Assembly (NCBI GenBank): GCA_963921275.4
Contig: OZ001293.3
Span: 6,144,001 to 6,208,000, forward strand
Length of the DNA: 64,000 bases
Reading direction: 5' to 3'
Source of the DNA: an uncultured Hormoscilla sp.
GTDB lineage: Bacteria; Cyanobacteriota; Cyanobacteriia; Cyanobacteriales; Desertifilaceae
The notes under the pieces were generated by a model, which saw only the letters and a program-made list of their open reading frames with translations, did no database searches and had not been told where the DNA came from. Position 1 is the first letter of the stretch; each line of letters starts with the position of its first letter. Both the position numbers and the translations under genes were made by a program. Shown here piece after piece: positions 15,627-39,132 of the stretch.

Positions 15627-17771
<2,145 letters not shown>

Positions 17772-21380: not shown

Positions 21381-22411
21381 TTAAAGGCGATCGCCAGTTT
21401 GGACATCAAACCAATGAATCCGATCGGGTGGCACAGCTAAGGTAAGTCGTTCTCCTTCCCAAGCTTGGTCATTAGGCAACAATACTCGCAGAGTCAACCC
21501 ATCTGCGATGTCCGACGGGCAGTGCGAGTAGCGCGCCCGGAGGGCATCGAAACCCTCAACCCTAAGCCTGATGAGATTGTGCATTCCCAAATTTTCCACC
21601 AAATCTACCGTTCCTTCAATCTTCTGAGGGTCTTCTGGGCGGGCGAGGCGGAGATGTTCAGGACGAATACCCAGTATAATGGACGGGGACATTTGGAGCA
21701 ACTCCCGCCCGTGCATGAGAAAGTCCCCCAAAACCGCAGCTTGTCGGTGGCATTGCAGTTGGAGTAAATTCATCTGGGGACTACCCACAAAAGAAGCGAC
21801 AAATTTATTAGCTGGATGGGTATAAATTTGCGTGGGGGTGTCTAGTTGCTGGACTATCCCATTGTTGAGAACTGCCACTTTATTAGAGAGAGTCATTGCC
21901 TCGGTCTGGTCGTGGGTGACGTAAATTACTGGCACTTGCTGGGATGCAAATATCTTTTTCATCTCAGCTCTTACCCGTTCTCGTAGTAGGGCATCCAGGT
22001 TACTCAGGGGTTCATCCAGTAAGAATACATCAGGACGACGCACGAGGGCGCGACCCAGAGCAACCCGTTGCCTTTGTCCCCCAGATAGTTGACCCGGTTT
22101 GCGGTCCATTAACGCTTCCAGTCCTAGCAGTTTAGCATATTCAGCGATCCGCTGTTTGATTTCAGAAGAGGGTACTTTTTTCAACTTCAGTCCCGATGCC
22201 AAGTTGTCATATACTTTCATGTGGGGATACAGGGCGTAGCTTTGAAACACCATCGCCATGTTGCGATCGCCCGGTTGGAGGTTTGTCACATCCCGCCCAC
22301 CGATTAATATCTTTCCCCGAGTAGGTTGTTCTAACCCTGCTATCATCCGCAGGGTCGTTGATTTGCCACAACCCGACGGTCCCAATAAGGTAAGAAATTC
22401 TCCATCTGCTA
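21381..22411 (-). pseudogene. 5'-truncated duplicate of the sugar ABC ATPase at 38068..39132
   Basis: Near-identical DNA; lacks the first ~27 codons; carries a 45-bp in-frame insert. Confidence 0.9.
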
Positions 22412-23579: not shown

Positions 23580-24470
23580 GGCTGTGTATAGCATTGTTAT
23601 CACCGGCAGAATATGGACGATCGCAGTTGGGTTGGGAAGAGGAGGGAATGAGGAACTGATGCCATCAAACCCTTACTAGATAAGCGTTTGAAGCAAGTAG
23701 CGAAAAATTTTTGCTCCCAAGCCAAAAAAGGGTTGACAAATGATTTTTTGGCGTCTACTATAGGTAAAGTGCGGTAACCGCAGCATCAGCCCCCCCAGCC
23801 TAAAGACTGGGGCTACACTGAATAGAGGTTGTAGGCGATAGCTGGCTTCGTTGGCCGCGTCGGCCATCATTAGGCGCGCTCGGGCCTTCGGTAAATCTGA
23901 GGGATCTGGGCTGTGTATACTATTGTGATAGCTGGCAGAATATGGGAAATAACTGGCAGAATATGGGCGCTCGCAGTTGGCTCCCGAAGATGATCGAATG
24001 AAGATCGGATGCATTCAAACCCTTACTAGATAAGCGTTTGCAGTAAATGGCGAAAAAAAATTTGCTCCCAAGCCCAAAAAGGTTGACAAATGATTTTTTG
24101 ACGTCTACTATAGGTAAACTGCGGTAACCGCAGCATCAGCCCCCCAGCCTAAAGACTGGGGCTACACTGAATAGAGCGCCGGTTGTAGGCAAGCTGGCTT
24201 CGTTGGCCATTCGCGTCGGCCATCATTAGGGGTGCCTTCGGTAAATCTGAGGGATCTGGGCTGTGTATACTAGAGCTGGCAAAATCAGGGAGATAACCGG
24301 CAGAATCGGGGCGATCGCAGTTGGCTCCCGAAGATGCTCGAATGAAGAGCGGATGCCTACAAACCCTTACTAGATAAGCGTTTGCAGTAAATGGCAAAAA
24401 AATTTGCTCCCAAGCCCAAAAAGGGTTAACAAATGATTTTTCGGCGTTTACTATAGGTAAAGTGCAGTAA
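23580..24470 (+). repeat. Three tandem ~345-bp units, each with a sigma70-like promoter
   Basis: TTGACA-17-TACTAT at 23733 and 24083; TTAACA-17-TACTAT at 24426; shared CAAACCCTTACTAGATAAGCGTTTG. Confidence 0.85.
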
Positions 24471-24489
24471 CACTCTGACAAGATTTCCG

Positions 24490-24831
24490 ATGGTTTCCAA
24501 CCAGCAGCTCATTCACGACCAACCCCAACCAATAAGCTTTGAGTCAAATGGCTCCAAGTCGGAAAAAAGTGTGCGATCGCTCCTGCTCGACAGGCTTTTG
24601 TCCCCCGATAGCCAACCCGGACGCTATTTCGATGGAGAAGCGATGCAGCAATTGATTGCTAGCATTAAGGAAAACGGCATCTTACAGCCGTTGCTGGTGC
24701 GACCTGTGGGAGATAAGTATGAATTGGTTGCGGGGGAACGCCGGTTAAAAGCCGCTCGGACAGTGGGACTGACAGAAGTTCCGGTGACTGTGCGGGAGAT
24801 GACTATTGAGTCAGGAATAGATTATCGATAG
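24490..24831 (+). pseudogene. ParB N-terminal domain fragment
   Basis: SIKENGILQPLLVRP...YELVAGERRLKAA; the frame ends before the HTH. Confidence 0.85.
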
Positions 24832-24879
24832 AAGCAAAATTGAAAAATTAAGAATAACGAATAACAAGGATGGGTTTCA

Positions 24880-25203
24880 GTGATGACAAAAGATTGGCAG
24901 ATTGATTATCAACAAGCAAGGTTGGAAGAAATCCTAGAAGATGGTACAGTTCGTTGTCATCTTTCACCAAGAAACTGCAAAATCAAGGAAGGGCAGCAAG
25001 GATTCTGTGGGATCAAACAAGTATATGATGCTGGCAAACATTTGGAACTTAGCACTTTGATGATCACGGACATCAGTGATCATGAAGAGACAGCAATGAA
25101 GATCTCTGACTGGATGATGGAAAATCTTGATTCCACTAGCGACGTTGGCATAGGCGAAAACCTAGGGTTCGTGTCACCAGACGCAAGTCAGTACAATCCA
25201 TAA
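24880..25203 (+). pseudogene. Internally deleted AmmeMemoRadiSam-type radical SAM enzyme
   Basis: N-terminal VRCHLSPRNCKIKEGQQGFCG joined directly to the late segment GKHLELSTLMI...ISDWMMENL; CxxxCxxC core absent. Confidence 0.6.
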
Positions 25204-25600
25204 GGATTGACATGACCAAAATGCTTACTGTCACTGGTACAAGTAGTAGTTCCTTCTCCCCAGATCTCAGGCGAGCGAATCTCAAAGATAGCATTGATTA
25301 CCTCTGCGATCGCCTCTTTTGCTGCCACACTGGTTGAAAACAAAAACTGGCAAGTCGAGGAAAATTGGTTACCTTTTGTAACAAAGAGTATTTTTTTTAG
25401 TGGTTAGTATAAGATGTCTCTAGATTGGTATGAAGTAAATCCATGTGCCGTAACTCAAGTCTTAAGCGTGTCCACATACGCTGTCACTTTTTAACGGTTA
25501 TCGATGTTTAAAGGGCAAGTCAATATTAATTTCTTCTGACTCCTACAAGGTTAATTCTTCTCCTCAAGTTCCTCAAATCTATCCAAACTTAAAAGGTCTT

Positions 25601-26560
25601 TTGCTTTGTCGGATGCGAAGAGCAGAACATCTGAGAGATTTTATCGCAGAGCAGCTGCTTTCGCTCCAGGACTTATGCCACCCAGTATTCATTCGCAATG
25701 ACATTACAGATTCAGTGCCTGTCGAAAATCTGCCTAGCGTTTTCGACTTTTCGGTTGAGAAGGCGATTGATGAGATAAAAATGGTTCGAGATCTTGGGAT
25801 CAAACATTTTGTTGTGCGCCCTCGTCCTGATAAAGTATTGGCTGACGATCCACAAACTGTTCTGAAATTTGAAGCTGAAGTTATTGAAAAAATTGCTAAG
25901 GCTTGTCCTGATGTGATCAAGCTCATTAATGGATATTTCGGCATGACTAGAAGCAATGGTCATTATGGTAAGGTCAACGATGACGGTTCGGTTAATTTGG
26001 AGGAATCTTTGCGCGAGCTAACCGAACATGCAATTGTTCAAGGTCAGGCTGGAGGAGATATTATTATTTCACTCGGTCGTCTCGATAATGCTGTTAGCTC
26101 GATACGCACTGGACTTAACTCTGTTGGTTTACATAACGTCGCGATTCTTGCCTATTCAGTCAATTTTGGCTCCTCTTTAGCTCACGCTATGCTCGATGGA
26201 ACCGAAATGGCAGAGAATGCTTACACTCAGACTATAGCTAGCAAAATTGGTGTTGGAAATATTGAAGAGGCTTTGCGCCAAACAGCGATTGAAGTCGCTC
26301 AAGGCGCTGATTACCTTGGTGTCAAGCCAGCAACTATCTTTCTCGATGCCATCGCAAGGGTTAAGCAGGAGTTTAAGCTACCAGTTGCGACTTATATCGT
26401 TTCTAAGGAATATTGCATGGTGAAAGCAGCAGCTGAACGTGGCTGGATCAATGAGCATGACACTGTTATAGAATATATGCTTAGCATGAAGCGTGCTGGT
26501 GCTGACAAAATCTTCAGCTACTGGGTTCACGATCTAGTTCGCTGGTTAAGATCTGGTTGA
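25601..26560 (+). CDS. Divergent porphobilinogen synthase (HemB/ALAD) homologue
   Basis: RMRR, DLCHPVF, QGADYLGVKPA, YIVSKEYCMVKAAAERGWI, KRAGADKIFSY. Metal-ligand segment and first Lys are altered. Confidence 0.85.
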   Translation: MLCRMRRAEHLRDFIAEQLLSLQDLCHPVFIRNDITDSVPVENLPSVFDFSVEKAIDEIKMVRDLGIKHFVVRPRPDKVLADDPQTVLKFEAEVIEKIAKACPDVIKLINGYFGMTRSNGHYGKVNDDGSVNLEESLRELTEHAIVQGQAGGDIIISLGRLDNAVSSIRTGLNSVGLHNVAILAYSVNFGSSLAHAMLDGTEMAENAYTQTIASKIGVGNIEEALRQTAIEVAQGADYLGVKPATIFLDAIARVKQEFKLPVATYIVSKEYCMVKAAAERGWINEHDTVIEYMLSMKRAGADKIFSYWVHDLVRWLRSG

Positions 26561-26606
26561 TCGATCCAATTTTAAGATTGATTTAGAAATTAACTTTGAA
26601 GGAAAG

Positions 26607-27515
26607 ATGAGCGACGTGACTAATTCTACTCCAGGTGGCATTGCTACTCGACCGCTTGGTAAAACCGGCAGACGAGTAACTGTTATAGGCTTGGGTACAG
26701 CGCCGATTGGATTAAGTGGTTATCAAGATCCAAATTTCGACCAGAAACGGTCAGAGAAGGAGTCTTTATGTGCGATTGAAACTGCTATCGAGCACGGCAT
26801 TACTTTTTTCGATACGGCACCAGCTTATGGTAACAAAGTCCCCACCGATGGTTGGTCAACTGACCGAGCCTCAGAACGAATGCTTGGTTTGATACTCGGG
26901 CAATATCGCGCTGACCGAGAACAGCTTTTTATAGCCACTAAAAATATGTTCGATCAGATGGATGCTGACGGTATCCGTAGATCATTGGATTATAGTTTGA
27001 AGCTATTGCAGACTGACTACGTCGATCTCTTTCAAATTCATGGAATTGTTGCTAATTCTTTCCGAGCTGATAATTGGCGGCAGTTCGTTACTGATGAGGT
27101 ACTGCAGGTTTTTTTAGATTTACAAAAAGAAGGCAAAACTCGTTATATTGGCATTTCAGGATACCGTGAGGGAGGCTTATCCGCTGCGATTGAGAGTAAT
27201 TACTTCCAGACGGTTATGCCGCAATTCAATTACTTTTATCGAAGCCCCGAATGGGAGTTAGTCAAGCTGGCACAGCAACATAGAGTAGCTGTTATTCCAA
27301 TGCGTCCAGTCACTGGTGGTTTGTTTCAAAAGCTTCAAAAAGATTGGTTGTTAGAACAAGTACCTCCAATCAATCCATTCAAGATGGCAATGAAGTACAT
27401 TCTTCAGTTTGACTGCGTCTCGACCATTCCGGTAGGAATGCGCACCAGTCAAGAAGTTGAACAAAATGTGCGCTTGATCAAGAAACTTGATAGTGAGATG
27501 GGATTGTCTCGCTAA
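26607..27515 (+). CDS. Aldo/keto reductase
   Basis: RPLGKTG, FFDTAPAYG, SERMLG, FIATK, LQTDYVDLFQIH, GKTRYIGISG. Confidence 0.9.
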   Translation: MSDVTNSTPGGIATRPLGKTGRRVTVIGLGTAPIGLSGYQDPNFDQKRSEKESLCAIETAIEHGITFFDTAPAYGNKVPTDGWSTDRASERMLGLILGQYRADREQLFIATKNMFDQMDADGIRRSLDYSLKLLQTDYVDLFQIHGIVANSFRADNWRQFVTDEVLQVFLDLQKEGKTRYIGISGYREGGLSAAIESNYFQTVMPQFNYFYRSPEWELVKLAQQHRVAVIPMRPVTGGLFQKLQKDWLLEQVPPINPFKMAMKYILQFDCVSTIPVGMRTSQEVEQNVRLIKKLDSEMGLSR

Positions 27516-27595
27516 TTTCTTGAGGGCACCTAATTGCCCGTTTGTGATAACTGGTCGTATTTGATTGGCGATAGCCAATAGATTGAGATAGTAAC

Positions 27596-27871
27596 ATGAA
27601 CACACCCAACTATAGCAACGATATTTTTGAGCGTGTCGTCGATACATTACGAAGTTGTATTCCTAAACGTTCTCGCACAGCTGAAATGCAAATGGAAACT
27701 CAACTTACCGACTTCGGCATGGACTCACTTGTTTTTCTAGAATTTCTACTAGCTTTAGAGGCAGAGTTCGAGCTGAATCTTACTGGAGATGTTCTGAAAT
27801 TGAAGCAAGTGCTAACAGTTGGAGATGCAGTGGAATTAGTTAGCAACGAACTCACGAAGGTGAATATATGA
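27596..27871 (+). CDS. Acyl carrier protein
   Basis: GMDSL phosphopantetheine site, LEAEF, TVGD; 91 aa. Confidence 0.9.
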   Translation: MNTPNYSNDIFERVVDTLRSCIPKRSRTAEMQMETQLTDFGMDSLVFLEFLLALEAEFELNLTGDVLKLKQVLTVGDAVELVSNELTKVNI

Positions 27872-28809
27872 ATTCAACTCCCGTTGCTGCTATTGGAAAC
27901 TTAGGATATGCCCTTGGTGACTTATACCCGCTTCAAGTTTTGGATGTACTAGCAGATAATCAAAAGTTACTGACTGCACTCAAAGCTAAAGGCATTTTGC
28001 ATTTTGCTCAAGCTACTGATACTCCAGTTGAACTTGCTTATCGTGCAGCGCGTGAGACGCTTGATTCATCAGAGGTAAAAGCCAAAGACATTGAGGCGAT
28101 TGTTTATGCCTCAACCAGTTTCTGGAAAAAGCAGTTCTACTCTGAAAGGGATATAGCTTGGTTGATGAATCAGCTAGGCTTGGTAAATGCTTATCCAGTT
28201 GGCGTGTTCTTACCTGGTTGTGCCAATGCTATTTCATCAATGCGCGTAGCCATCAATATGATCCGCGCTGAAGATTACCGTAATGTTATGGTAGTGACCA
28301 CTGATAAAGTGATTCCAAGAGACAGTGTCAAACGTATAATGTGGCCGGATGTCTCTGTCTTATCTGATGCTGCTGCATCTTTTCTGGTTACACCAGGTAA
28401 CCAGGGTGAATTTAATGTGATTTCAGCCAGTAATAAAAGTACACCGTTGATGTGGGATCTCGACAATCAGAGTAATTTGGCTGCATTCCTAGTGTCAACG
28501 GTTAAAGGTGCGCAGCAGACAGTAGCAGAGGCACTGCAGTTAGCTAATGTCGCTCCCAGCAGCATCCGTACCTTATTAAGTAATAACTATAATAATGATG
28601 TCATGGGAATGATGGCACGCAAATGTGGATTAAATGAAGATCGAGTCTACCTTGGTAATGTATCGCGCTTCGCTCATGCGTACGCTGCCGACACCCTGAT
28701 TAATCTTAAGGATCACCTTAGTAAATCACATGCTAAACAGGGTGACTGTTTCATGCTTCTCGGTACGGGGCACAAGAACTGGGGAGCCGTTGTGTTGCAA
28801 AAAACTTGA
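27868..28809 (+). CDS. FabH/KAS III-like condensing or acyl-transfer enzyme
   Basis: Catalytic-position PGCAN, SDAAAS, AHAYAADTLINL, GxG...WGA; ATGA overlap with the ACP stop. Confidence 0.8.
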   Translation: MNSTPVAAIGNLGYALGDLYPLQVLDVLADNQKLLTALKAKGILHFAQATDTPVELAYRAARETLDSSEVKAKDIEAIVYASTSFWKKQFYSERDIAWLMNQLGLVNAYPVGVFLPGCANAISSMRVAINMIRAEDYRNVMVVTTDKVIPRDSVKRIMWPDVSVLSDAAASFLVTPGNQGEFNVISASNKSTPLMWDLDNQSNLAAFLVSTVKGAQQTVAEALQLANVAPSSIRTLLSNNYNNDVMGMMARKCGLNEDRVYLGNVSRFAHAYAADTLINLKDHLSKSHAKQGDCFMLLGTGHKNWGAVVLQKT

Positions 28810-28861
28810 TCGGCGTGACATCGTGAGACTATAAACACAAATCAGAAATTATAGATTGTCA

Positions 28862-29584
28862 ATGGAAAACATACAAGCCAAAACAAACAACACAGCCAAT
28901 GGAGGTAAAAATATAATAGCGCTAGATCACTTACGTAATGTCTTGAGCGTGCGCTATTCAGCTAGAGCATTCCTACCCGAGGTGCTGTCACGCGAACGGA
29001 TTGAGCGACTCCTCGAGGCTGCTGCGCTGTCGCCATCTTGGTGTAATACGCAGCCTTGGAAAGCTTATGTGGCTTCCAGTACGACTTTGAATGAGATCAG
29101 CAAGGATTTGGTTAAGGCGGCACGAGACCGCTGTGATACTCCTGATATCCCGTTTATCTCTGAATATCCAGAACCCTATCAAAGCCGTAAGCAAGAAGCT
29201 GACGAGGCATTGCGATTAGCCAGAGGTATTAATCCTACTGATTATCGTAGTCTAGTTCATGCAGTATATGCTAACTGGCGCTTCTTTGATGCCCCTCAGG
29301 CATTATTTTTAACCGTTCCTGCATCATTCGGTCCTTATGCTCTACTCGATCTGGGTTGTTTCTTACAGAGCTTCTTGCTGGCTTGCGTTACTGATAATCT
29401 AGCTGCCTGTCCACAAGCATCTCTAGCGCAATATCCTGAAGCAGTGCGACGAAACTTACCAATTGAGGCAGATGAATTGATTGCCTGCGGAGTTTCTTTC
29501 GGTGTCCCTGACCCTAATGCTGGTGCTAATAAATATAGAACTAGTCGCATTGGAGTTTCTGATTTTGTCCATTTCCAAGAGTAG
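28862..29584 (+). CDS. Nitroreductase-family flavoprotein
   Basis: RYSARAF, SPSWCNTQPW, FFDAP, DLGCFLQSFLL, ACPQAS. Confidence 0.9.
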   Translation: MENIQAKTNNTANGGKNIIALDHLRNVLSVRYSARAFLPEVLSRERIERLLEAAALSPSWCNTQPWKAYVASSTTLNEISKDLVKAARDRCDTPDIPFISEYPEPYQSRKQEADEALRLARGINPTDYRSLVHAVYANWRFFDAPQALFLTVPASFGPYALLDLGCFLQSFLLACVTDNLAACPQASLAQYPEAVRRNLPIEADELIACGVSFGVPDPNAGANKYRTSRIGVSDFVHFQE

Positions 29585-29613
29585 ATAAAACCTGCTCATA
29601 TAGTGACTTTTGA

Positions 29614-31275
29614 GTGATTAAAATGACTGTTCATATTCCAATGTCTGTTTGCTCAACTCCCAGTTGGCGTATTGGTGAGATTGCAAAGCTCCTTGCAGCC
29701 AATACGTATAATACACTGACTTACTTTGATGCATCAGGGATAGCTCAGATTCGATATTTCCCAGAGATTATGCAAGATGCTTTATCAACTTTGGCTCTGT
29801 TGCGCAAGATATGCAACTCAACTCAACTTGGTAACCGTTGTGCTATTGTCGGTAACCCCGGATATCCTTGGTTGTTAGTAGCGCTAGCCTGTATTGTAGC
29901 CAAGATAGAGATTGTTGCTATACCAGAGTCTTTAGAAGATAGTGAAGTTCAGGCTAGTCTTCAAGACTTATCACTAGACTTTGTGGCTACAGAAACTAAA
30001 TTCGCGAATTATAATGTTTTTCAGGGTCTACCACATCTGAATCTAGATAGCCTATTAAAATAAATCACCAGCATTGACTCGATTCCCGAACCACCCGAGG
30101 ATGGAGAATTTAGCTTGGTTGCATTCACATCAGGCTCGACTTCAACAGCTAAGGTTAAGTCATTTCGTGTTAATTCAGCTTCCACAGAATTGTTCATTGA
30201 TACTTTTGTCGAACTATATAGATTTACCCATGACGAAAACTGGATAGTATGCCATTCGTTTTCTCATATCGTTCACTTAGAATATGTGTTGGGAGGGTTA
30301 TGTTGGGGTTACAATATTACTATTACTGATCCACTTAGACTTGTCCTTAATGCCGCGCAACTCAAACCTTCAATTTTAGTAACAGTTCCTGGTGTGTACG
30401 AGCAGATAGTTGGGCTAATTAAGAGCAAGTTGCCCAAAAGTGGCCCGCGGAGAGCATTGATTAACAAGCTTCTGGAGCAGCCAGTTAGCGAAGAAACGCG
30501 ATTACTTGCGCAAACAATACAACCGATATTAATGCCTGAGATTAACAAGCTACTTGGTAACCAGCTAAAAGTTATGATCTTTGGTTCTGCCCCCTCTACA
30601 AAGGAACTTAAGCGTACCCTCATTCTATTCGGTTTGCCAGTTTACGAAGGGTATGGTATGTCTGAAACTAATATGTTGACCTGCAATTTACCAAATCAAT
30701 ATCGCTACAACACGGTTAATCCTGTCTGGCCCGGAGTTGAACTAAAACTTAATGAAAAAGGAGTTATTCAGGCTAAGCTTCAATGCAAGCGCACTAGCAG
30801 TTATCTCAATCTTACTACTGAGGAAAATGCCCAGACCTTTATTGGAGACGGTTGGATCGATACTGGAGATGTTGGTGAATTTGAAGATGGATTTTTAAGT
30901 ATCATTGGTCGTGTTAAGGAACTGATTATTACTAATCGTGGTGAGAATGTGAACCCCGCACCAATCGAGTTGAAGCTGAAGAAAATAGAAGGATTTAAAG
31001 ATGCTTTAGTTTTCGGTAACAATAAACCCTTTCTAGTCGCTGTACTAGCTCCATATCAAGCTAACTCCCCGTTAAACTCAGACCGGATTACAGCAGCAGT
31101 TACGGTGATTAATAAGAGCCTTCCTGTATCGGAGCGAATCCGCGACTACTTGCTTATCAAAGAGCCTTTCACTGAAGCCAATGGGCTACTAACCCGTTCT
31201 GGAAAGTCGCGCATATCTCTCATTGAAGAACGTTTTCAATCCGAAATTGAAGCACTTTATGAACGTCATAATTAA
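29614..31275 (+). pseudogene. AMP-dependent (acyl-CoA/ACP) ligase with one in-frame stop
   Basis: ORFs 29614..30063 and 30115..31275 share a frame; TAA at 30061-30063. Motifs FTSGST, YEGYGMSE, TGD, GRVKELI, GENVNP. Confidence 0.85.
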
Positions 31276-31291
31276 TAAAGTTGGAGTTACC

Positions 31292-32104
31292 ATGAGCGGC
31301 ATTTGTTCCCTACAAGGTGAGGTTATGAATAAAATTGATAACCTAGGTTGTAAAGTGATACTAGGAGACTTTGATTATGTTGCTAAACCGACGATTATTC
31401 GCGACTGCTTTGAGTTTACTTGGAACGAATGGGAAAGTAAGATTAATTACCTTCTTAAGACAATAGATCCTAAAATCACACCCTTGGTAAGCCTCTATGC
31501 TCGTGTCCGCGGAGTTCAGGAGGCTCAATTGCTGGAGCAGTTGTCACATGTTGCTAATAATTATCCTGACCTTGGTGTGTTGTTCCACTTTTTCGATGTC
31601 GAAGCCATGTCTCGTGCACTCGATATTTATCGAGGACGACCATTGATTAATTATGTTAGTGGAGAGAAATGGGCACTTGAGCGGATCTTACCGCTGCTTA
31701 AACGTCATCCAGTTCCAATAGTTATACAACCAATTGGTGACATGGGTATACCACCGACAGTGAACGAGCGTATGGAGATTATCCAGCATATTGCCAATAC
31801 TTTTACGCGAGTTGGCATCGACCGCCGAGATATATACGTTGATGGTCTAACTCCAGCACTTGGCACCCTTGAGTTTTCACTTCAAGTTAGCCTCAAAACA
31901 ATAACTGCTGCCAAGGAGGCAGGTTTCGAGACTATCTTATGGCCAGCAAACGCTGGTCTTGGACATCCTGACGGTAAATTTATTGCTGCTACTTATGCTG
32001 CAATGGCTGTACAAGCTGGCTTAGATCTAGCTGTCGTAGCATCGGCTGATAGAGAAATTTATACAGCTATTGCTCAAGCTAACCTAATTCTCCGAGATAG
32101 TTAG
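31292..32104 (+). CDS. Pterin-binding domain protein (MetH/AcsE/DHPS-like barrel)
   Basis: RPLINYVSGE, GIPPT..ER, GIDRRDIYVD, AVQAGLDLAV; GGAG RBS before ATG 31292. Confidence 0.7.
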   Translation: MSGICSLQGEVMNKIDNLGCKVILGDFDYVAKPTIIRDCFEFTWNEWESKINYLLKTIDPKITPLVSLYARVRGVQEAQLLEQLSHVANNYPDLGVLFHFFDVEAMSRALDIYRGRPLINYVSGEKWALERILPLLKRHPVPIVIQPIGDMGIPPTVNERMEIIQHIANTFTRVGIDRRDIYVDGLTPALGTLEFSLQVSLKTITAAKEAGFETILWPANAGLGHPDGKFIAATYAAMAVQAGLDLAVVASADREIYTAIAQANLILRDS

Positions 32105-32341
32105 ATGACAACTTCATTTCAAAAAGATCTCGAGTCTTTGCGTTCACAAATTGATGATATTGATAACAAGCTATTGGAGCTATTAGTGCACAGAGTCGAA
32201 ATTTCAAGCATCATTGCTAAGATGCTGAAGCTCCCTGAAGATTGGATATCAGAGTTATTCAAGATCGTCCTACTAGGTTGTAGAACTATTTCGCATGAGC
32301 GTCTCGAAAATGAACGATCAAGTCGAGAATATATTGACTAA
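32105..32341 (+). CDS. Chorismate mutase type II / PchB-like protein, probably internally deleted
   Basis: LESLRSQIDDIDNKLLELLVHR helix; the central RE-containing segment appears to be missing. Confidence 0.7.
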   Translation: MTTSFQKDLESLRSQIDDIDNKLLELLVHRVEISSIIAKMLKLPEDWISELFKIVLLGCRTISHERLENERSSREYID

Positions 32342-32368
32342 AAGACAACATTAGTTAAGGAGTTCAAA

Positions 32369-32650
32369 ATGACAATTCTTCGTGTTTTTCTGCAATCACC
32401 TCTTGACACTGTAGTTGGGGTGACAAAAGAAGAGACAAAATCGATTAATGCTGATACCGTTTACGGGGCTTTGATTGATCTATGTAACTCACATCCTAGC
32501 TTGCGGAATCGGTTGTTCAATGGCGAGCAGCTTAATCCATTTATTAACGTCTTTCTGAATGGTGAGTTGGTGCAACCCTATCAGTGCAAACAACAACCTA
32601 TTACTGACTATGACGAGCTATGTTTATTGTTTGCAATCCGCGGAGGTTGA
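32369..32650 (+). CDS. MoaD/ThiS ubiquitin-like sulfur carrier
   Basis: 93 aa; FINVFLNGE; C-terminal AIRGG. Confidence 0.88.
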   Translation: MTILRVFLQSPLDTVVGVTKEETKSINADTVYGALIDLCNSHPSLRNRLFNGEQLNPFINVFLNGELVQPYQCKQQPITDYDELCLLFAIRGG

Positions 32651-32652
32651 TC

Positions 32653-33066
32653 ATGATTGTGCCACAACATATCAGAAATCAAATTATTTTACATTGCCAA
32701 GAAAAGGCACCTTATCAGGCTTGTGGATTAGTTCTCTTTAACTCAGATGGTGTTGCTCAGTCGGTTGAGAAGGCGACTAATTACGGTGCCTGGCCTTACG
32801 GTTTCCATATTGCCCCCAAATCGCAGCTTAATGCCTTCCGTAGAGCACAGAAGAAAGGCTGGTCGATTGGGGGAGTTTATCATTGCCATGCAGTATCAGA
32901 GGCAATCCCAACCGGTCGAGACCTTGAACGTCCAGTTCCCCCTAATATCCTCTACATCATTGTTTCACTACTATTCCCAGATCGACCGGAAATTCGTGGT
33001 TTCACTTTAACCAATGGTGTCCCAAGTCCTATCGATCTCGACACTGGTAAATCGTTGATTCACTAG
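32653..33066 (+). CDS. JAB/Mov34 (M67) metallopeptidase
   Basis: PYQACGL (Q where E is usual) and YHCHAVSEAIPTGRD, a HxH-x10-D pattern. Confidence 0.85.
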   Translation: MIVPQHIRNQIILHCQEKAPYQACGLVLFNSDGVAQSVEKATNYGAWPYGFHIAPKSQLNAFRRAQKKGWSIGGVYHCHAVSEAIPTGRDLERPVPPNILYIIVSLLFPDRPEIRGFTLTNGVPSPIDLDTGKSLIH

Positions 33067-33122
33067 AGTTTACTAGTCCTACATAACTAACATGGATTTT
33101 GTCCTGTACTTAGGGTGAACCT

Positions 33123-34544
33123 ATGTCTATCATTCCCGATCGTATTAACTGGCTTCTTCACCAACAAGAACTCTATCAATTTCTTGTAACTTGTCAGCAT
33201 AATTTTACAGCCCAAGATAGCGAACGAATTATTAGTTTCTCTCAAGCCTTAAACCCACTCGATCCGCTAGCATTTTGTCAAGCAGCTTCTCCCACAAAAA
33301 ATCAATCATATTTTTATCTTGAAAATCCCAGAAAAAAGCAAGCAATAGCTGCTGTTGGAATCACCAAATCAACCACTATTGATTCTCCAAACCGCTTTCT
33401 CAAATCCCGGAAATTTGTTCAGTCTTGTCTTCAGAAAAATATTTGCACTGGCGATCTTCAATTGCCAGGTAGTGGACCATATTTTTTCTGTAATTTCACC
33501 TTCTTCGATTCTCCGGAAAATAGCGACCATTTGTTTCCCTCTGCTACTATTTTTTTACCTATTTTTTATGTATATATATCCAAAAAATGCTGTGTTTTAG
33601 TAGCTAATTTTATTGTCGATTTTAAACGAGATATAGAACTGACTTTCCAGGAAATTCAACAGCAATTTAAAGCTATCCGGAATGCTACTCGCAGTTCTAT
33701 TAACTTAACGTTTATACCACCAGAACAATTGATCCGAAAAGCCTCAGATCATCTTTCCAACTACCAAACATCAGTCATATAAATCTTAAAATCTATTCAC
33801 AAAAAGCAGGTTAGTAAAGTTGTACTTGCCCACACCCTCGATGTCATTTCCCTCATTCCCTTTGGAGTCTTTGAATCTCTTAATCGTCTGCGGCGGCGAC
33901 ATCCCAATTGCTATATCTTCTCTATTAGTAATGGCAACGATAACCACTTTATGGGTGCTAGTCCCGAACGTCTCCTTAGTATCCACAACCAAAAACTTGT
34001 TACCGATGTTCTTGCCGGTTCTGCACCCAGAGGGAAAATAACTTCAGAGGATATCAGCTTTGCCAACAGACTATTGCGGAGTGAAAAAGAGAGGCGAGAA
34101 CACCAAGCTGTGAGTGATTTTATCACCCAGCAGCTTTACCAACTAGGATTGCAACCCCTGCAGTCTCCGCTACAACTGTTGCAACTCTCTAATATTCAAC
34201 ATTTGTGGATGCAAATTCAAGCAAGCGTTCCAAGCGACCTCCATCCTCTCGATATAGTTGCCCAATTGCATCCCACTCCAGCAGTTGCCGGAGTTCCCAC
34301 TGAAATAGCCTGCGAACAAATTCGCCGCTACGAAACTTTTAATCGCACTCTCTATGCTGCGCCGGTAGGCTGGGTAGACTATCAAGGCAATGGAGAATTT
34401 ATTGTTGGTATTCGATCTGCCATGATTTCAGGAAATCGCGCCCGCCTTTATGCAGGAGCAGGCATTGTAGCTGGTTCCGATCCTAATAAGGAACTTGCAG
34501 AGGTTGAACTCAAACTACGATCGCTTTTGAGTGATTTGGGGTAG
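33123..34544 (+). pseudogene. menF: Isochorismate synthase (MenF-like) with one in-frame stop
   Basis: 33123..33782 and 33951..34544 share a frame; TAA at 33780-33782 then KVVLAH, GASPERL, LHPTPAVAG, GIRSA, AGAGIVAGS. Confidence 0.88.
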
Positions 34545-34727
34545 CTCGCCCCATTATCCCATTTTCCTAGGGTGTGTCATCAAATAGGGAGGAAAGTAGG
34601 ATAAACTCAAAAGCGCCACTGTCCAACCCCCCAAACCATGAGTGATATGAGCACCCGCCGCTATGCGTGATGATCAACAGAATTCTTGAGATAACATCAA
34701 AAACAGTTGAGCCAATTGAGGAAGAAG

Positions 34728-36890
34728 ATGAATCTAGCAAACCGGACAGAAGTCAGTCAAACCAAAAGTAGCTATGAGACTCAAAAAGGTATAATTATCC
34801 ATCGAACCATTGAAGCCTTGCCGGACTCAGGGACTATGGATGACCTAATTGAAGCTCTCAATGAATCGCGCGGAGTTTTATTATCCTCTAATTATGAAGT
34901 TCCTGGACGTTATCGTCGTTGGATGTTTGGTTTTATCAACGCCCCTCTTTCAATTAGCGCAATTGGTCGCTCTTTTCAAGTTTCTGCTCTAAACGAACGT
35001 GGACAAGTTATTTTGCCTTTTATTAGAGCGGCGGTTCAACAGTTGAGTGCGGTCGAGTCTATTTCGTTTGACGCAACTGAACTCTCCGGTTCGGTCTGTG
35101 TTACGACCGAGCGTTTCCCGGAAGAGATGCGCAGCAAACAGCCTTCAATTTTCTCGCTTTTACGTTGCTTGATCGAAGTTTTTTATAGCGACCAAGATCC
35201 TTATCTTGGTCTTTATGGTGCTTTCGGCTACGATCTCGCTTATCAATTTGAGAATGTAGAAAAACAAATACCACGCCTACCTGGACAACGTGACTTGGTG
35301 CTATTTATTCCCGATCAGATTTATGTTGTAGACCATTATCGAAATTCCGCCTTTATCAGTTATTATGACTTTGAAATCAATGGGAAATCTACTGTTGGCC
35401 TTAGTCGTGATGGTCTGAGCGTTCCCTATCATCCATCTACTCGGGTAAGTTGTAGCTGCGATCACGAACCAGGACAATACGCGGATTGCGTACGCCAGGC
35501 GCGAGAATACTTTCAGCGTGGCGATTTGTTTGAAGCCGTACCTGGCCAGACCTTTTTTGAACCAGCCAAATTGCCGCCGTCAGCAATTTTTAGGAGTTTG
35601 CGAGAACGCAATCCATCACCTTATCAATTCCTAATTAACCTGGGAGAGCAGGAGTATTTAGTTGGAGCCTCTCCGGAAATGTATGTGCGCGTCATTGGTC
35701 GGCAAATCGAAACCTGTCCCATTTCCGGCACAATTGATCGTGGCAACGATGCTATCGGCGATGCGACGCAGATACGTGAGCTGCTGAATTCCGAAAAAGA
35801 TGAATCTGAACTAACAATGTGTACCGATGTTGATCGCAATGATAAATCCCGGATTTGTATTCCAGGAACAGTTCGTGTAATTGGTCGCCGACAAATCGAA
35901 CTTTACTCTAAACTTATTCATACCGTCGATCACGTCGAGGGGAAACTGGCTGATGGCTACGATGCCCTAGACGGTTTTTTAACCCATACTTGGGCGGTGA
36001 CTGTGACTGGAGCTCCCAAGCTTTGGGCTATGCGTTTCCTTGAGGAACATGAACGTTCACCCCGCAATTGGTACGGTGGTGCCGTCGGCGTTATCGGATT
36101 CAATGGTGACCTAAATACAGGTCTAACATTACGGACAATCCACATTCAAAATGGTATTGCAAAAATTCGTGCTGGTGCAACGCTGCTTTACGATTCAGAT
36201 CCTAAGAAGGAAGAAGAAGAAATCTATCTAAAGGCTGAAATATTCTTAGAGATCGTTCGCGGCTCCAGCAACAGACAAACTCATAAGTGTATTGATCAAA
36301 GCAAAAAAAAGGGGATCGGTAAGCGAATTGTCTTAATCGATCACCAAGACTCTTTTGTTCATACTCTAGCTAACTATTTTCGCCAAAGCGGTGCAGAAGT
36401 CACTACCTTTCGTCCTGGTTTCGATATCGATTACCTCAAATCGGCTAAACCAGATCTTGTTGTCTTATCACCGGGACCTGGTCGTCCTAGTGACTTTTTG
36501 TTAAGCAATACGATCGCAATAGTGAGACAACTAAACTTGCCAATGTTTGGTGTATGCTTGGGACTTCAAGGAATTGTTGAATATTTTGGTGGCAAGCTTG
36601 GGATATTACCTTACCCAATGCACGGCAAGGCTTCTGAAGTGATTCTTCAGGAAAGCAAGCTCTTTGCTGGCCTACCGAAAAAGCTGAAAGTTGGTCGTTA
36701 TCACTCTATCTATGCTATCAAAGAGGAAGTACCACCGATACTTAAAGTTACAGCTATGACAGAAGATGGTATTGTAATGGCTGTAGAACATGAGTTCCTG
36801 CCAGTTTCTGCTGTGCAATTTCACCCAGAATCGATACTTACTTTAGAAGGTAATGTGGGTCTTAAGATTATTAATAATGCCATCCCTTAA
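34728..36890 (+). CDS. trpE: Fused anthranilate synthase TrpE(G)
   Basis: NPSPY, ASPEMYVRV, TCPISGT, TVTGAPK, AGATLL; GATase part DSFVHTL, LSPGPG, GVCLGLQ, QFHPES. Confidence 0.93.
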   Translation: MNLANRTEVSQTKSSYETQKGIIIHRTIEALPDSGTMDDLIEALNESRGVLLSSNYEVPGRYRRWMFGFINAPLSISAIGRSFQVSALNERGQVILPFIRAAVQQLSAVESISFDATELSGSVCVTTERFPEEMRSKQPSIFSLLRCLIEVFYSDQDPYLGLYGAFGYDLAYQFENVEKQIPRLPGQRDLVLFIPDQIYVVDHYRNSAFISYYDFEINGKSTVGLSRDGLSVPYHPSTRVSCSCDHEPGQYADCVRQAREYFQRGDLFEAVPGQTFFEPAKLPPSAIFRSLRERNPSPYQFLINLGEQEYLVGASPEMYVRVIGRQIETCPISGTIDRGNDAIGDATQIRELLNSEKDESELTMCTDVDRNDKSRICIPGTVRVIGRRQIELYSKLIHTVDHVEGKLADGYDALDGFLTHTWAVTVTGAPKLWAMRFLEEHERSPRNWYGGAVGVIGFNGDLNTGLTLRTIHIQNGIAKIRAGATLLYDSDPKKEEEEIYLKAEIFLEIVRGSSNRQTHKCIDQSKKKGIGKRIVLIDHQDSFVHTLANYFRQSGAEVTTFRPGFDIDYLKSAKPDLVVLSPGPGRPSDFLLSNTIAIVRQLNLPMFGVCLGLQGIVEYFGGKLGILPYPMHGKASEVILQESKLFAGLPKKLKVGRYHSIYAIKEEVPPILKVTAMTEDGIVMAVEHEFLPVSAVQFHPESILTLEGNVGLKIINNAIP

Positions 36891-36941
36891 CTGTAGCGAC
36901 CTGCAATCGAAATTGGCTCGACCCGCAATCAAGAGCTTTTT

Positions 36942-37060
36942 GAGACCACATTAATTGAGATTGAAGATGACCTCAGACCCACATTATTTGAGACTGAGAC
37001 CACATTAACTGACCCGGGTCGGCAGCGATCATTGCAGACCCACATTATCTGACACTGACT
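36942..37060 (-). mobile_element. Putative Tn7-like transposon end (four TnsB-site-like direct repeats)
   Basis: AGAC(C)CACATTA(A/T)(T/C)TGA at 36943, 36975, 36997 and 37036. The minus strand starts AGTCAGTGTCAGATAATGTG. Confidence 0.45.
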
Positions 37061-37130
37061 GGTTCAAAACGGTTTTCGTAGATAATCGGCGATCGCCTTT
37101 TTTGCCGCTACCTTAGTAGGGGCAGATCTA

Positions 37131-37382
37131 GCGAAGCTGGCCTGAAGGGCAATCTAGCTTGAAACCCTTACAGAACAAGGGTTTCAAAACTGAAAATTTG
37201 AGGATTGAATTTTGCAGCTTCTGGGCAGTTCCGGCAAAAATCGCCTTTCTGGGTTTGGGGTACTTTTGCCTGAAGGCTTTGACTGGCAATGATTTCAGAG
37301 ATTTAGTGAAGATGGCTCTTGGGAGCACCTCAAGCATTGAAAGCTGCAAAATTTCCTAGATTGCCCTTCATCGCAGCTTCGC
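37131..37382. repeat. 252-bp element bounded by 27-bp imperfect inverted repeats
   Basis: GCGAAGCTG-N3-TGAAGGGCAATCTAG and its reverse complement; inner palindrome TGAAACCCTT-N7-AAGGGTTTCA. Confidence 0.75.
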
Positions 37383-38067
37383 TATGTTTACCCCTATATC
37401 ATCGGATTTATAGGCAAGGCGATCGGAAACGTATGGGGTCACTGGCGGTAATTGGGCGGTAATTTCTCCTATTTATTCTTGGTGACAATCCGGAGAGTAA
37501 AAGGCGATCGCATTTAACCGCTCTTTACGAGCGTCCTTCCACCTCCTGAATGATAAAGTCTCTCTCTTGCGGTCGGCTACAGAACTGGGTGCTGCCTTTC
37601 ATACCTGCGGTGAAATACTCTTCCTTGCATACCCAATGACGATCGCCTTTCTCCGGTTCCACATAGCGACCAACGATAGTGAAATCGCCCTGCCAGTCCA
37701 ACCGATACAGAATGCGATCGCCGTGCCTGGGAGCGCGCTCGGTCGAGGGCAGTCTGGCGAGTCTCTGTTTCTGTTCTTGGCTCAGTCCCCGAGCAATTTG
37801 GTTCAGTCCCTCAATGCCATATAACTCCCGGATTACCTTCTCCTGGTGTCAGCTGCTTTCATATCTGATTCGTCCAACCGCAGCTCCGATGTGCTCTGCT
37901 GCTGTGTCTCCTGGGAGCTTGATGTCCCCCGGGAGCGCTAACCGCACTACCCGGGGGACATCGTAGTCGCACTACCCAGGAGACACAGCGCGCTCCATAT
38001 CGCAGGAGCACATTAATCGCACATCGTGCAAAGATAGGACTATCTTGCGGCATTTTGCATCTGCATA

Positions 38068-39132
38068 TTAAAGGCGATCGCCAGTTTGGACATCAAACCA
38101 ATGAATCCGATCGGGTGGCACAGCTAAGGTAAGTCGTTCTCCTTCCCAAGCTTGGTCATTAGGCAACAATACTCGCAGAGTTAACCCATCTGCACCCTCA
38201 ACCCTAAGCCTGATGAGATTGTGCATTCCCAAATTTTCCACCAAATCTACCGTTCCTTCAATCTTCTGAGGGTCTTCTGGGCGGGCGAGGCGGAGATGTT
38301 CAGGACGAATACCCAGTATAATGGACGGGGGCATTTGGAGCAACTCCCGCCCGTGCATGAGAAAGTCCCCCAAAACCGCAGCTTGTCGGTGGCATTGCAG
38401 TTGGAGTAAATTCATCTGGGGACTACCCACAAAAGAAGCGACAAATTTATTAGCTGGATGGGTATAAATTTGCGTGGGGGTGTCTAGTTGCTGGACTATC
38501 CCATTGTTGAGAACTGCCACTTTATTAGAGAGAGTCATTGCCTCGGTCTGGTCGTGGGTGACGTAAATTACTGGCACTTGCTGGGATGCAAATATCTTTT
38601 TCATCTCAGCTCTTACCCGTTCTCGTAGTAGGGCATCCAGGTTACTCAGGGGTTCATCCAGTAAGAATACATCAGGACGACGCACGAGGGCGCGACCCAG
38701 GGCAACCCGTTGCCTTTGTCCCCCAGATAGTTGACCCGGTTTGCGGTCCATTAACGCTTCCAGTCCTAGCAGTTTAGCACATTCAGCGATCCGCTGTTTG
38801 ATTTCAGAAGAGGGTACTTTTTTCAACTTCAGTCCCGATGCCAAGTTGTCATATACTTTCATGTGGGGATACAGGGCGTAGCTTTGAAACACCATCGCCA
38901 TGTTGCGATCGCCCGGTTTTAGGTTTGTCACATCCCGCCCACCGATTAATATCTTTCCCCGAGTAGGTTGTTCTAACCCTGCTATCATCCGCAGGGTCGT
39001 TGATTTGCCACAACCCGACGGTCCCAATAAGGTAAGAAATTCTCCATCTGCTACTTGCAAACTGATGTTATTTACTGGAACTACTTTCTGACTGTAGGTT
39101 TTGTTCAGATTAATTATTTCTACTTTGGCCAT
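38068..39132 (-). CDS. Carbohydrate ABC transporter ATPase (MalK-like)
   Basis: GPSGCGKS, LSGGQRQR, LLDEP, C-terminal TOBE-like region. Confidence 0.95.
   Translation of the reverse strand: MAKVEIINLNKTYSQKVVPVNNISLQVADGEFLTLLGPSGCGKSTTLRMIAGLEQPTRGKILIGGRDVTNLKPGDRNMAMVFQSYALYPHMKVYDNLASGLKLKKVPSSEIKQRIAECAKLLGLEALMDRKPGQLSGGQRQRVALGRALVRRPDVFLLDEPLSNLDALLRERVRAEMKKIFASQQVPVIYVTHDQTEAMTLSNKVAVLNNGIVQQLDTPTQIYTHPANKFVASFVGSPQMNLLQLQCHRQAAVLGDFLMHGRELLQMPPSIILGIRPEHLRLARPEDPQKIEGTVDLVENLGMHNLIRLRVEGADGLTLRVLLPNDQAWEGERLTLAVPPDRIHWFDVQTGDRL

Follow-up and report, generated by a model that had tools for sequence, protein, structure and literature searches.

Porphobilinogen synthase (PBGS, HemB) carries out a Knorr condensation for which both of its lysines are needed, as described in the accessible part of PMC7242693. 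For the human enzyme, the available portion of PMC7725820 has Lys252 taking the P-side Schiff base first and the P-side ALA supplying the ring nitrogen, and that of PMC13465085 assigns Ser279, Tyr318, Lys199 and Lys252 to the substrate in the P-site and Arg209, Arg221 and Zn to the substrate in the A-site. PBGS is treated as a one-reaction family, and a rebuilt branch at the head of a biosynthetic cluster would be a case of this fold serving a different condensation.

The Pqs alkylquinolone and aurachin routes are anthranilate/ADIC pathways with ACP and FabH-like enzymes. A tetrapyrrole-pathway enzyme fold is reused in secondary metabolism in the alaremycin cluster (almABCE), where the reused enzyme is an ALA synthase and the accessible part of PMC9356726 gives no PBGS homologue. 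The thioquinolobactin (qbs), PDTC (pdt) and thioplatensimycin clusters combine a sulfur carrier, MoeZ, a JAMM protein and an acyl-activating enzyme, and no HemB-like enzyme is mentioned for these pathways in the available portions of PMC6006322 and PMC5925218; the latter also describes BexX, which is homologous to ThiG and receives its sulfur from carrier proteins.

Within the window, the whole 64,000-nucleotide stretch of DNA that was analysed, we find a HemB-like TIM-barrel protein, here named HemB*, that is a conserved, cluster-dedicated PBGS offshoot heading an undescribed mobile biosynthetic cluster across several phyla. It shares with PBGS the fold, the N-terminal arm, the P-side lysine and the Ser/Tyr carboxylate clamp, but it is encoded in a biosynthetic cluster, with a canonical hemB elsewhere in the genome, and scores below the NCBIfam cut-off. 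With the class I Schiff-base aldolases (DERA, DHDPS) it has in common a TIM barrel with a reactive lysine, although at 11-15% identity, and with HemB* descending from PBGS, this likeness is one of presumed mechanism. The cluster resembles qbs, pdt and thioplatensimycin in its sulfur carrier, MoeZ, JAMM protein and acyl-activating enzyme, but it has no recognised type III CoA-transferase, its ThiS ends in a free Gly-Gly, and Gln replaces the JAMM Glu in five of five cases. As in the Pqs and aurachin systems there are a dedicated anthranilate synthase, a ligase, a FabH-fold enzyme and a link to quorum sensing; the difference lies in a single KSIII-like gene with a Cys/His/Asp set, in HemB* itself, and in the reductase, chorismate mutase, MeTr-like barrel and sulfur carriers, and no PqsE-like gene was recognised in the HemB* cluster. 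The literature searched, which took in few subscription journals and no supplements, held no description of a HemB paralogue in such a cluster, nor of this gene set.

Sequence and Fold of HemB*

The gene occupies 25601-26560 (+) and encodes 319 residues from a TTG start, or 315 from an ATG at 25613, in a frame free of stops and frameshifts. The sequence-only reading had called the ORF otherwise intact, which holds for the open frame but not for the protein as a whole, given three private changes (R3C, D110N and A152G) and the lack of an ATG at the start site of P0003-type homologues. Contigs from three public runs, which may be the assembly's own source, show 0 differences over 24400-26741 and are also identical letter for letter over 29780-30930 and 32778-34889. 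Sequencing error behind Asn188, Asn110 and the two stops described below was ruled out on these 0 differences, a check that is not independent of the source of the assembly.

HemB* matches Pfam PF00490 (ALAD) with 215 bits against a cut-off of 24.6, all 24 of its PDB sequence matches are ALAD, and it is ~33% identical to the PBGS of E. coli (1i8j/1b4e) and Chlorobium (1w1z), with the N-terminal arm retained. The AlphaFold model has a mean pLDDT of 87, with the lid residues 211-218 poorly modelled (<50), and compares with PBGS at a Foldseek TM of 0.88 and a VIA Z of 37.8 (rmsd 2.3 Å over 312 residues). Second in the fold ranking is deoxyribose-phosphate aldolase (DERA, Z 18.7), and DHDPS is also listed (Z 14.8). 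An ESM Atlas search with the clade member P0005 returned general ALAD clusters only. Against the NCBIfam equivalog for PBGS (NF006762), HemB* scores 227 bits, below the cut-off of 297, in the range of P0005 (229), P0015 (272) and P0017 (237), whereas the canonical HemB of the window's genome scores 530. The latter, at C1:2704245, groups with two named cyanobacterial HemBs, which makes a cyanobacterial origin of the genome likely, and a canonical hemB is present besides HemB* in all five genomes tested (the window's own, G001-G003 and G524). That HemB* could be the housekeeping HemB was ruled out by the separate canonical hemB and the sub-cut-off equivalog score. In the databases, members of the clade go by 'porphobilinogen synthase' or 'hypothetical protein', names that keep them hidden. 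Separately, the window's genome has another canonical-type hemB at G000:C1:6353842-6354800 (L002, L004), interrupted by a frameshift, and several other genomes of the phylum have a hemB match with one internal stop.

A Rebuilt Active Site

E. coli residue numbers are given here as the count from the 1b4e alignment plus one, and their correspondence to the human PBGS numbers is our assumption. The motifs quoted in the sequence-only reading were found as described: NGYFGMTRSNGHYG forms residues 110-123, YSVN residues 185-188 and GVKPA residues 240-244. In the 1b4e alignment Asn188 (26162-26164, +) falls on Lys195, the first PBGS lysine, and Lys242 (26324-26326, +) falls on Lys247, the P-side Schiff-base lysine. 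The Lys195 column holds Asn in 24 of 25 clade rows, some of which are near-copies, and in all 19 further members that cover it, against Lys in 101/101 canonical HemBs, a comparison set made up of those nearest to the query (P0020-P0120). The His at this position in P0005 was set aside as a likely read error, Asn being found in 13/13 covering members of its cluster. Of the PBGS lysine pair HemB* has kept only the second, conserved in 19/19 covering rows, and the protein presents a TIM barrel with a lysine at the Schiff-base position, as class I aldolases do.

The P-side carboxylate clamp (E. coli Ser273 and Tyr312) is retained as Ser268 and Tyr307 in 19/19 covering rows, and Tyr185, Tyr265 and Val267 are kept as well. 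On the A side both arginines are gone (Arg205 to Leu198, Arg216 to Thr211) and the Zn cysteines are replaced by Tyr112, Gly114 and Tyr122. Seen against the human enzyme, the P-site set is kept except for Lys199 and the A-site set is lost. The earlier proposal of a remodelled metal segment stands for the three cysteine positions but not for the quoted Asn110 (25928-25930, +), a private change in a family whose motif is DGYFG, with Asp at position 110 in 23/24 clade rows and 20/20 further members as well as in canonical HemB. The remodelling is also broader than had been noticed, taking in the A-side arginines and five new basic residues that are invariant in the clade (Arg73, Arg160, His195, Lys215 and Lys269). 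Gln220, Ser165, Phe79, Tyr201 (now Ala), Phe204 (now Met), Glu232 and Gly274 of PBGS are replaced too. In all, 24 positions are conserved within the clade and within canonical HemBs yet differ between them, concentrated at the active-site columns of the 1b4e alignment, and 11 of these are invariant in 101/101 canonical proteins (F79R, S165L, Met-to-Arg160, K195N, P203A, F204M, R205L, Q220K, E232Q, D236E and G274K).

From these residues, synthesis of porphobilinogen by HemB* cannot be expected. With the clamp kept, the substrate to be expected is a ketone carrying a carboxylate at a distance of three bonds, a spacing that ALA, 2-oxoglutarate and prephenate all share. If, as we assume, Phe79, Tyr201, Phe204 and Gly274 line the P pocket, then the added positive charge and the lost aromatics near it would favour a substrate bulkier and more anionic than ALA.

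The earlier label of a single-Lys enzyme is not established, because the new invariant lysines could take over a catalytic role. Lys215 (26243-26245, +), at the lid glutamine (Gln220), is present in 22/22 clade rows, and Lys269 (26405-26407, +), adjoining Ser268 and replacing Gly274, in 21/21; the same columns are Gln and Gly, respectively, in 101/101 canonical HemBs. HemB* might on this evidence still be a two-lysine enzyme, with Lys215 (or Lys269) as second Schiff-base site or general base and the substrate in a new orientation. We give this rather little credence, as a lysine on the lid or at the anion clamp, which is where we presume Gln220 and Gly274 of PBGS to lie, more simply binds a carboxylate or phosphate.

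Quite improbable, too, in our view is a non-catalytic role, in which HemB* would either capture an ALA-like antimetabolite from the cluster, as a decoy or for self-protection, or act as a scaffold for the reductase. The place of hemB* as first gene of the operon and the canonical hemB that always accompanies it (5/5 genomes tested) are consistent with such a role, and ALA mimics that inhibit PBGS exist, for example alaremycin (PMC9356726, accessible part). However, a decoy for an ALA mimic should retain the ALA sites and not rebuild them, a resistant PBGS is impossible without Lys195 and both arginines, and the strict invariance of the five new basic residues better matches catalysis.

The Clade and Its Distribution

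A homologue search gave 314 matches, and among the best 120 a group of 18 (P0002-P0019) is 42-82% identical to HemB* and is followed by ordinary HemB at 31-36%. A profile search of 1.84 billion representatives recovered two full-length members at 607 and 529 bits, with the next full-length protein at 260, and three partial proteins among the best 150 profile matches also bear the clade motifs. A quick IQ-TREE tree was built from 64 rows: 21 from the clade and 43 others chosen by hand, of which 9 were degenerate HemBs. It gives the clade an SH-aLRT of 100, a stem of ~2.2 changes/site and short inner branches. This phylogeny, with the column counts above (Asn 24/25, Lys 101/101), upholds the suggestion that the K-to-N change marks a cluster-linked clade and is not decay; the finding named in advance as speaking for decay, close homologues that keep both lysines, was not seen in the clade sequences. 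The first lysine is kept in 234 of the 246 rows not labelled as clade, and three of the exceptions are in fact clade members. Other HemB-like representatives without one or both lysines (P0163, P0168, P0187, P0194, P0202, P0220, P0221, P0241 and P0261) sit on long, scattered end branches.

The clade comprises ~20 protein clusters from several bacterial phyla, and occurs in a cyanobacterium, Betaproteobacteria, Blastococcus and metagenomes; P0298 is recorded from the cultured Fluviibacter phosphoraccumulans and another member from a Bryobacteraceae bin. A clade-level score (596 bits; next 271) was obtained for a single genome among 401 of the phylum, the window's own, and 401 genomes of the family of G003 gave one match at E 1e-110. 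A GTDB pattern scan found three loci and missed that of G524, so that it is not exhaustive. Among viral contigs, 50 pattern matches included no relative of HemB*, and the 663 matching plasmid records were all <60%, the best among the matches listed being 32%.

Between L006 and L009, pN is 0.03 against a pS of 0.75, and between the window and L009 these values are 0.14 and 0.87. HemB* is under purifying selection, with synonymous sites saturated and the protein conserved. In the comparisons of the window and of the proteobacterial loci it outranks every other cluster gene in conservation, and against L012 it is level with the reductase. That HemB* is simply an ordinary HemB in decay might be read from the decaying cluster of the window and from D110N and R3C in its HemB*, but the substitutions are common to ~20 protein clusters across phyla under purifying selection and the cluster is whole in G524, L006, L009 and L011. 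We regard this explanation as refuted for the HemB* family, with a vanishingly small chance of being correct, and as remaining only for the three private changes of the window copy. The clade is a real and rare PBGS branch, neofunctionalised and outside HemB membership, one that probably still works in the manner of a Schiff-base aldolase.

Composition of the Cluster

Eight distinct loci were compared: the window, Blastococcus (L005 and L023), the Polynucleobacter bin L006, L009, L010, L011, L012 and G524; L009 and the Propionivibrio bin L007 are identical and count as one locus. The Blastococcus cluster lies on two contigs, L005 ending and L023 beginning in consecutive genes. In its complete form the cluster has 12 genes in ~11 kb, and G524 carries it in a closed 2.3 Mb genome. 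That the HemB homologue heads a cluster, as proposed from the window, is borne out by the conservation of that cluster in the homologous loci. HemB*, the reductase and the ACP are adjacent in 7/8 loci; in the exception, L012, a BacA-like prephenate decarboxylase is inserted between them (an automatic lead with score 0.97 and TM 0.81; its Pfam PDT match is sub-cut-off). A relationship between this protein and the pterin barrel of the cluster was considered and rejected.

In the window the partner most tightly co-conserved with HemB* is an aldo-keto reductase (26607-27515, +) with invariant catalytic residues D69, Y74, K112 and H145. It belongs to a matching small family of 27 members, 8 of which are on contigs of the same size as that of a HemB* homologue. 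There follow an acyl carrier protein (27596-27871, +), a KSIII/FabH-fold enzyme (27868-28809, +) with invariant C118, H270 and D275 and without the FabH His and Asn, a nitroreductase-family flavoprotein (28856-29584, +) and an acyl-AMP ligase (29614-31275, +), which has an in-frame TAA at 30061-30063 and is unbroken in the homologous loci. The ligase bears a weak likeness to fatty-acyl ligases and carboxylic acid reductase domains, below every family cut-off, and had 0 matches in the PDB at E 1e-15. Next come a pterin-binding (MeTr-like) TIM barrel (31292-32104, +), the remnant of an AroQ chorismate mutase (32105-32341, +), in which a 27-residue internal deletion takes out the Lys and the Arg-Glu active-site stretch, a ThiS/MoaD sulfur carrier (32369-32650, +) and a JAB/JAMM protein (32653-33066, +). 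A second isochorismate synthase (33123-34544, +), with an in-frame TAA at 33780-33782, occupies the place that MoeZ has in other loci, and a fused TrpE-TrpG of the clade 3 anthranilate synthase family (34707-36890, +), not found in 20 relatives, completes the set. A host-owned trpEG beside the island was ruled out (0 matches at E 1e-100 in the 20 relatives), and assignment of the fusion as an ADC synthase is disfavoured by its PISGT against the PIKGT of the 8hx6 alignment.

Among the seven loci that are long enough, the KSIII-like enzyme and the ligase are found in 7/7, the nitroreductase, MeTr-like barrel, chorismate mutase, ThiS and JAB protein in 6/7 and MoeZ in 5/7. An amino-chorismate synthase lies beside every one of the seven, and each has a gene that handles prephenate. 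The TrpEGs of the window, L011 and L012 pass the cut-off for clade 3 anthranilate synthase at a mutual likeness of only 40-48%; other cluster genes of the window are 52-76% identical to those of L009. Blastococcus has a PhzE-like gene instead, on the opposite strand (match to 3r74, which we take to be PhzE, at E 1e-151). The divergent TrpEGs and this PhzE-like gene therefore indicate that the amino-aromatic supply was recruited more than once. An extra isochorismate synthase is present in Blastococcus as in the window. Upstream of the cluster, luxR, DUF4902 and luxI are found in L009, L011 and G524, and no ALA-forming gene was recognised among the labelled ORFs of the loci. Neighbours of the defence-island type (SIR2 plus HerA, double-GTPase/GAP1, PRTase-CE with an ORC-CDC6-like NTPase, a WYL protein and a DNA methylase) occur at L005 1-2890, L009 600-7554, L025 1150-4169 and L026 5159-10190.

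The sulfur carrier, MoeZ, JAMM protein and acyl ligase of the qbs/pdt cassette occur together in 5/7 long loci, the window being without MoeZ, and no ORF of the 12-gene run was recognised as a type III CoA-transferase. In all five sequences of the JAB/JAMM protein (window, L006, L009, L011 and L023) Gln stands in place of the catalytic Glu, with HxH and Asp kept, and its ThiS partner, ending in Gly-Gly, needs no trimming. It is a matter of speculation that the Gln-type JAB and the MeTr-like barrel might serve as a Zn thiolate activator for S-methylation. In Blastococcus the barrel and the chorismate mutase share one open frame (L023 6560-7747, -), hinting that the two act together.

In the 16.4 kb examined of the 27 kb contig L012 (34% GC), genes for an acyl-CoA dehydrogenase, a cupin, a TPP enzyme and ETF-like proteins take the place of the sulfur genes, and every rebuilt active-site residue of HemB* is kept. 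This locus bears on the notion of a sulfur insertion of the ThiG/BexX type, in which a thiocarboxylated ThiS would deliver sulfur to a ketone on Lys242 to give a thiazole, thiophene or thio-sugar-like product, as the frequency of ThiS and JAB (6/7) and MoeZ (5/7) in the long loci might suggest. Yet L012 retains the rebuilt site with no sulfur carrier genes in the part examined, and ThiS is among the least conserved genes of the cluster where HemB* is the most conserved; we hold sulfur insertion to be very unlikely. As regards homology to ThiG, the PDB sequence matches are ALAD in 24/24 cases and ALAD heads the fold list.

Proposed Reaction

Beyond a conserved, rebuilt and clustered enzyme, every step set out below is our inference. 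As in the sequence-only reading, the most plausible role of HemB* is that of a condensing enzyme that uses a partner other than ALA, and in the form that we prefer, whose chance of being right we put at about half, it would be a metal-free Schiff-base aldolase that joins a keto acid on Lys242 to an amino-aromatic partner by a C-C bond and closes an N-heterocycle. Anthranilate or ADIC would come from the amino-chorismate synthase, whereas prephenate or an arylpyruvate would be the contribution of the chorismate mutase or, in L012, of the BacA-like enzyme. Lys242 would form an imine with a 4-oxo-acid-shaped ketone, its distal carboxylate held by Ser268 and Tyr307 as in PBGS. Candidates with that spacing are 2-oxoglutarate and prephenate, and Arg73, Lys269 and His195, together with the room left by Tyr201-to-Ala and Phe204-to-Met, would suit a bulkier and more anionic substrate than ALA. 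C-C bond formation would take place with the partner held in the second half-site, which has no Zn, lysine or arginines, and the amine of the partner would then displace Lys242 and close the ring by Friedlaender/Knorr logic; DHDPS closes a nitrogen ring by transimination from one lysine. The reductase, ligase, ACP, KSIII-like transferase, flavoprotein and sulfur carriers would process partner or product, the outcome being possibly a thioacid or an S-methyl thioester.

Such an aldolase explains why both chorismate branches are present and why no ALA-forming gene was recognised. Counting against it, the ligase passes no family cut-off, so an aryl substrate is not indicated by it, and the Blastococcus cluster extends over two contigs, with its amino-chorismate gene on the opposite strand. 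Lys195 of PBGS may also be a general acid/base. HemB* shows no recognised replacement for this lysine, and PBGS needs both of its lysines (PMC7242693, accessible part). A fuller version, which we offer only tentatively and think improbable as a whole, would have HemB* as a Friedlaender-type synthase that condenses an anthranilate-derived partner with prephenate or arylpyruvate to an aryl-quinoline carboxylate, converted into a thioacid or S-methyl thioester via the sulfur carriers, the Glu-to-Gln JAB and the MeTr-like barrel, in a pathway controlled by quorum sensing and passed between four or more phyla.

The least departure from PBGS chemistry would be a hetero-Knorr pyrrole synthase, in which ALA on Lys242 gives the ring nitrogen. 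An arylpyruvate or β-ketoacyl-ACP would occupy the rebuilt A half-site and enolise without a Schiff base, yielding a 3-aryl- or 3-acyl-pyrrole for ACP loading and transfer to anthranilate. The kept Lys242, Ser268, Tyr307, Tyr185, Tyr265 and Val267 are consistent with this, as is a swap of charge in the A-site, where the Arg205/Arg216 acetate clamp, Zn and Ser165 are lost, Arg160 is gained nearby and Tyr112, Tyr122, Leu158 and Leu198 make the site hydrophobic. The KSIII-like enzyme, moreover, has a Cys/His/Asp set resembling that of aroyl transferases of the CloN2/ChlB6 kind. On the other side, Phe79, Tyr201, Phe204 and Gly274 of the P pocket are changed too, and no ALA-forming gene was recognised in the clusters, whereas the alaremycin cluster has an ALAS homologue (PMC9356726, accessible part). 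We consider a pyrrole synthase of this kind unlikely, and retain the Schiff-base aldolase as the preferred reading. HemB* could serve as a biocatalyst in mixed Knorr or Friedlaender reactions, and the small cluster, the closed genome G524 and the cultured species for P0298 make both the enzyme and its product directly testable.

State of the Window Copy

The cluster of the window lies on an island at about 25140-37830, with 43.1% GC against 47.2% for the genome, that is absent from 4/4 same-genus genomes, three of which match a flank at 94-100%. On a stricter count of private changes, other full-length HemB* members have 0-4 and the distant branch 10-17. Given the two stops, the mutase deletion, the absent MoeZ and the private changes of HemB*, the pathway in the window is therefore likely dead or dying; to judge from the sequence, this cluster is decaying and probably no longer makes its product, with the HemB* family alive elsewhere.

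The same runs contain a second copy of the cluster that is not in the assembly. It is ~86% identical and several times deeper, corresponds to 26654-33017 and 34773-36890 of the window, matches neither hemB* nor the isochorismate synthase at the 85% level, and may belong to a co-cultured organism or an unassembled replicon. At the edge of the island a short ORF (24880-25203), which we presume to derive from a radical SAM gene, resembles two ends of a gene and has no Pfam match; G407 has ~500 more bases between its two pieces matching this stretch, and the ORF is therefore an internal deletion. A gene for a sugar ABC ATPase flanks the island as a 99% duplicate (21381-22385 and 38068-39132), the left copy having a truncated start and a short insert. 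Further upstream, an ORF at 16488-17771 appears by eye to begin like a glyceraldehyde-3-phosphate dehydrogenase and to continue like an acetate kinase, adjoins what we take, also by eye, to be transposase-like remains (15739-16515), and looks like rearrangement debris.
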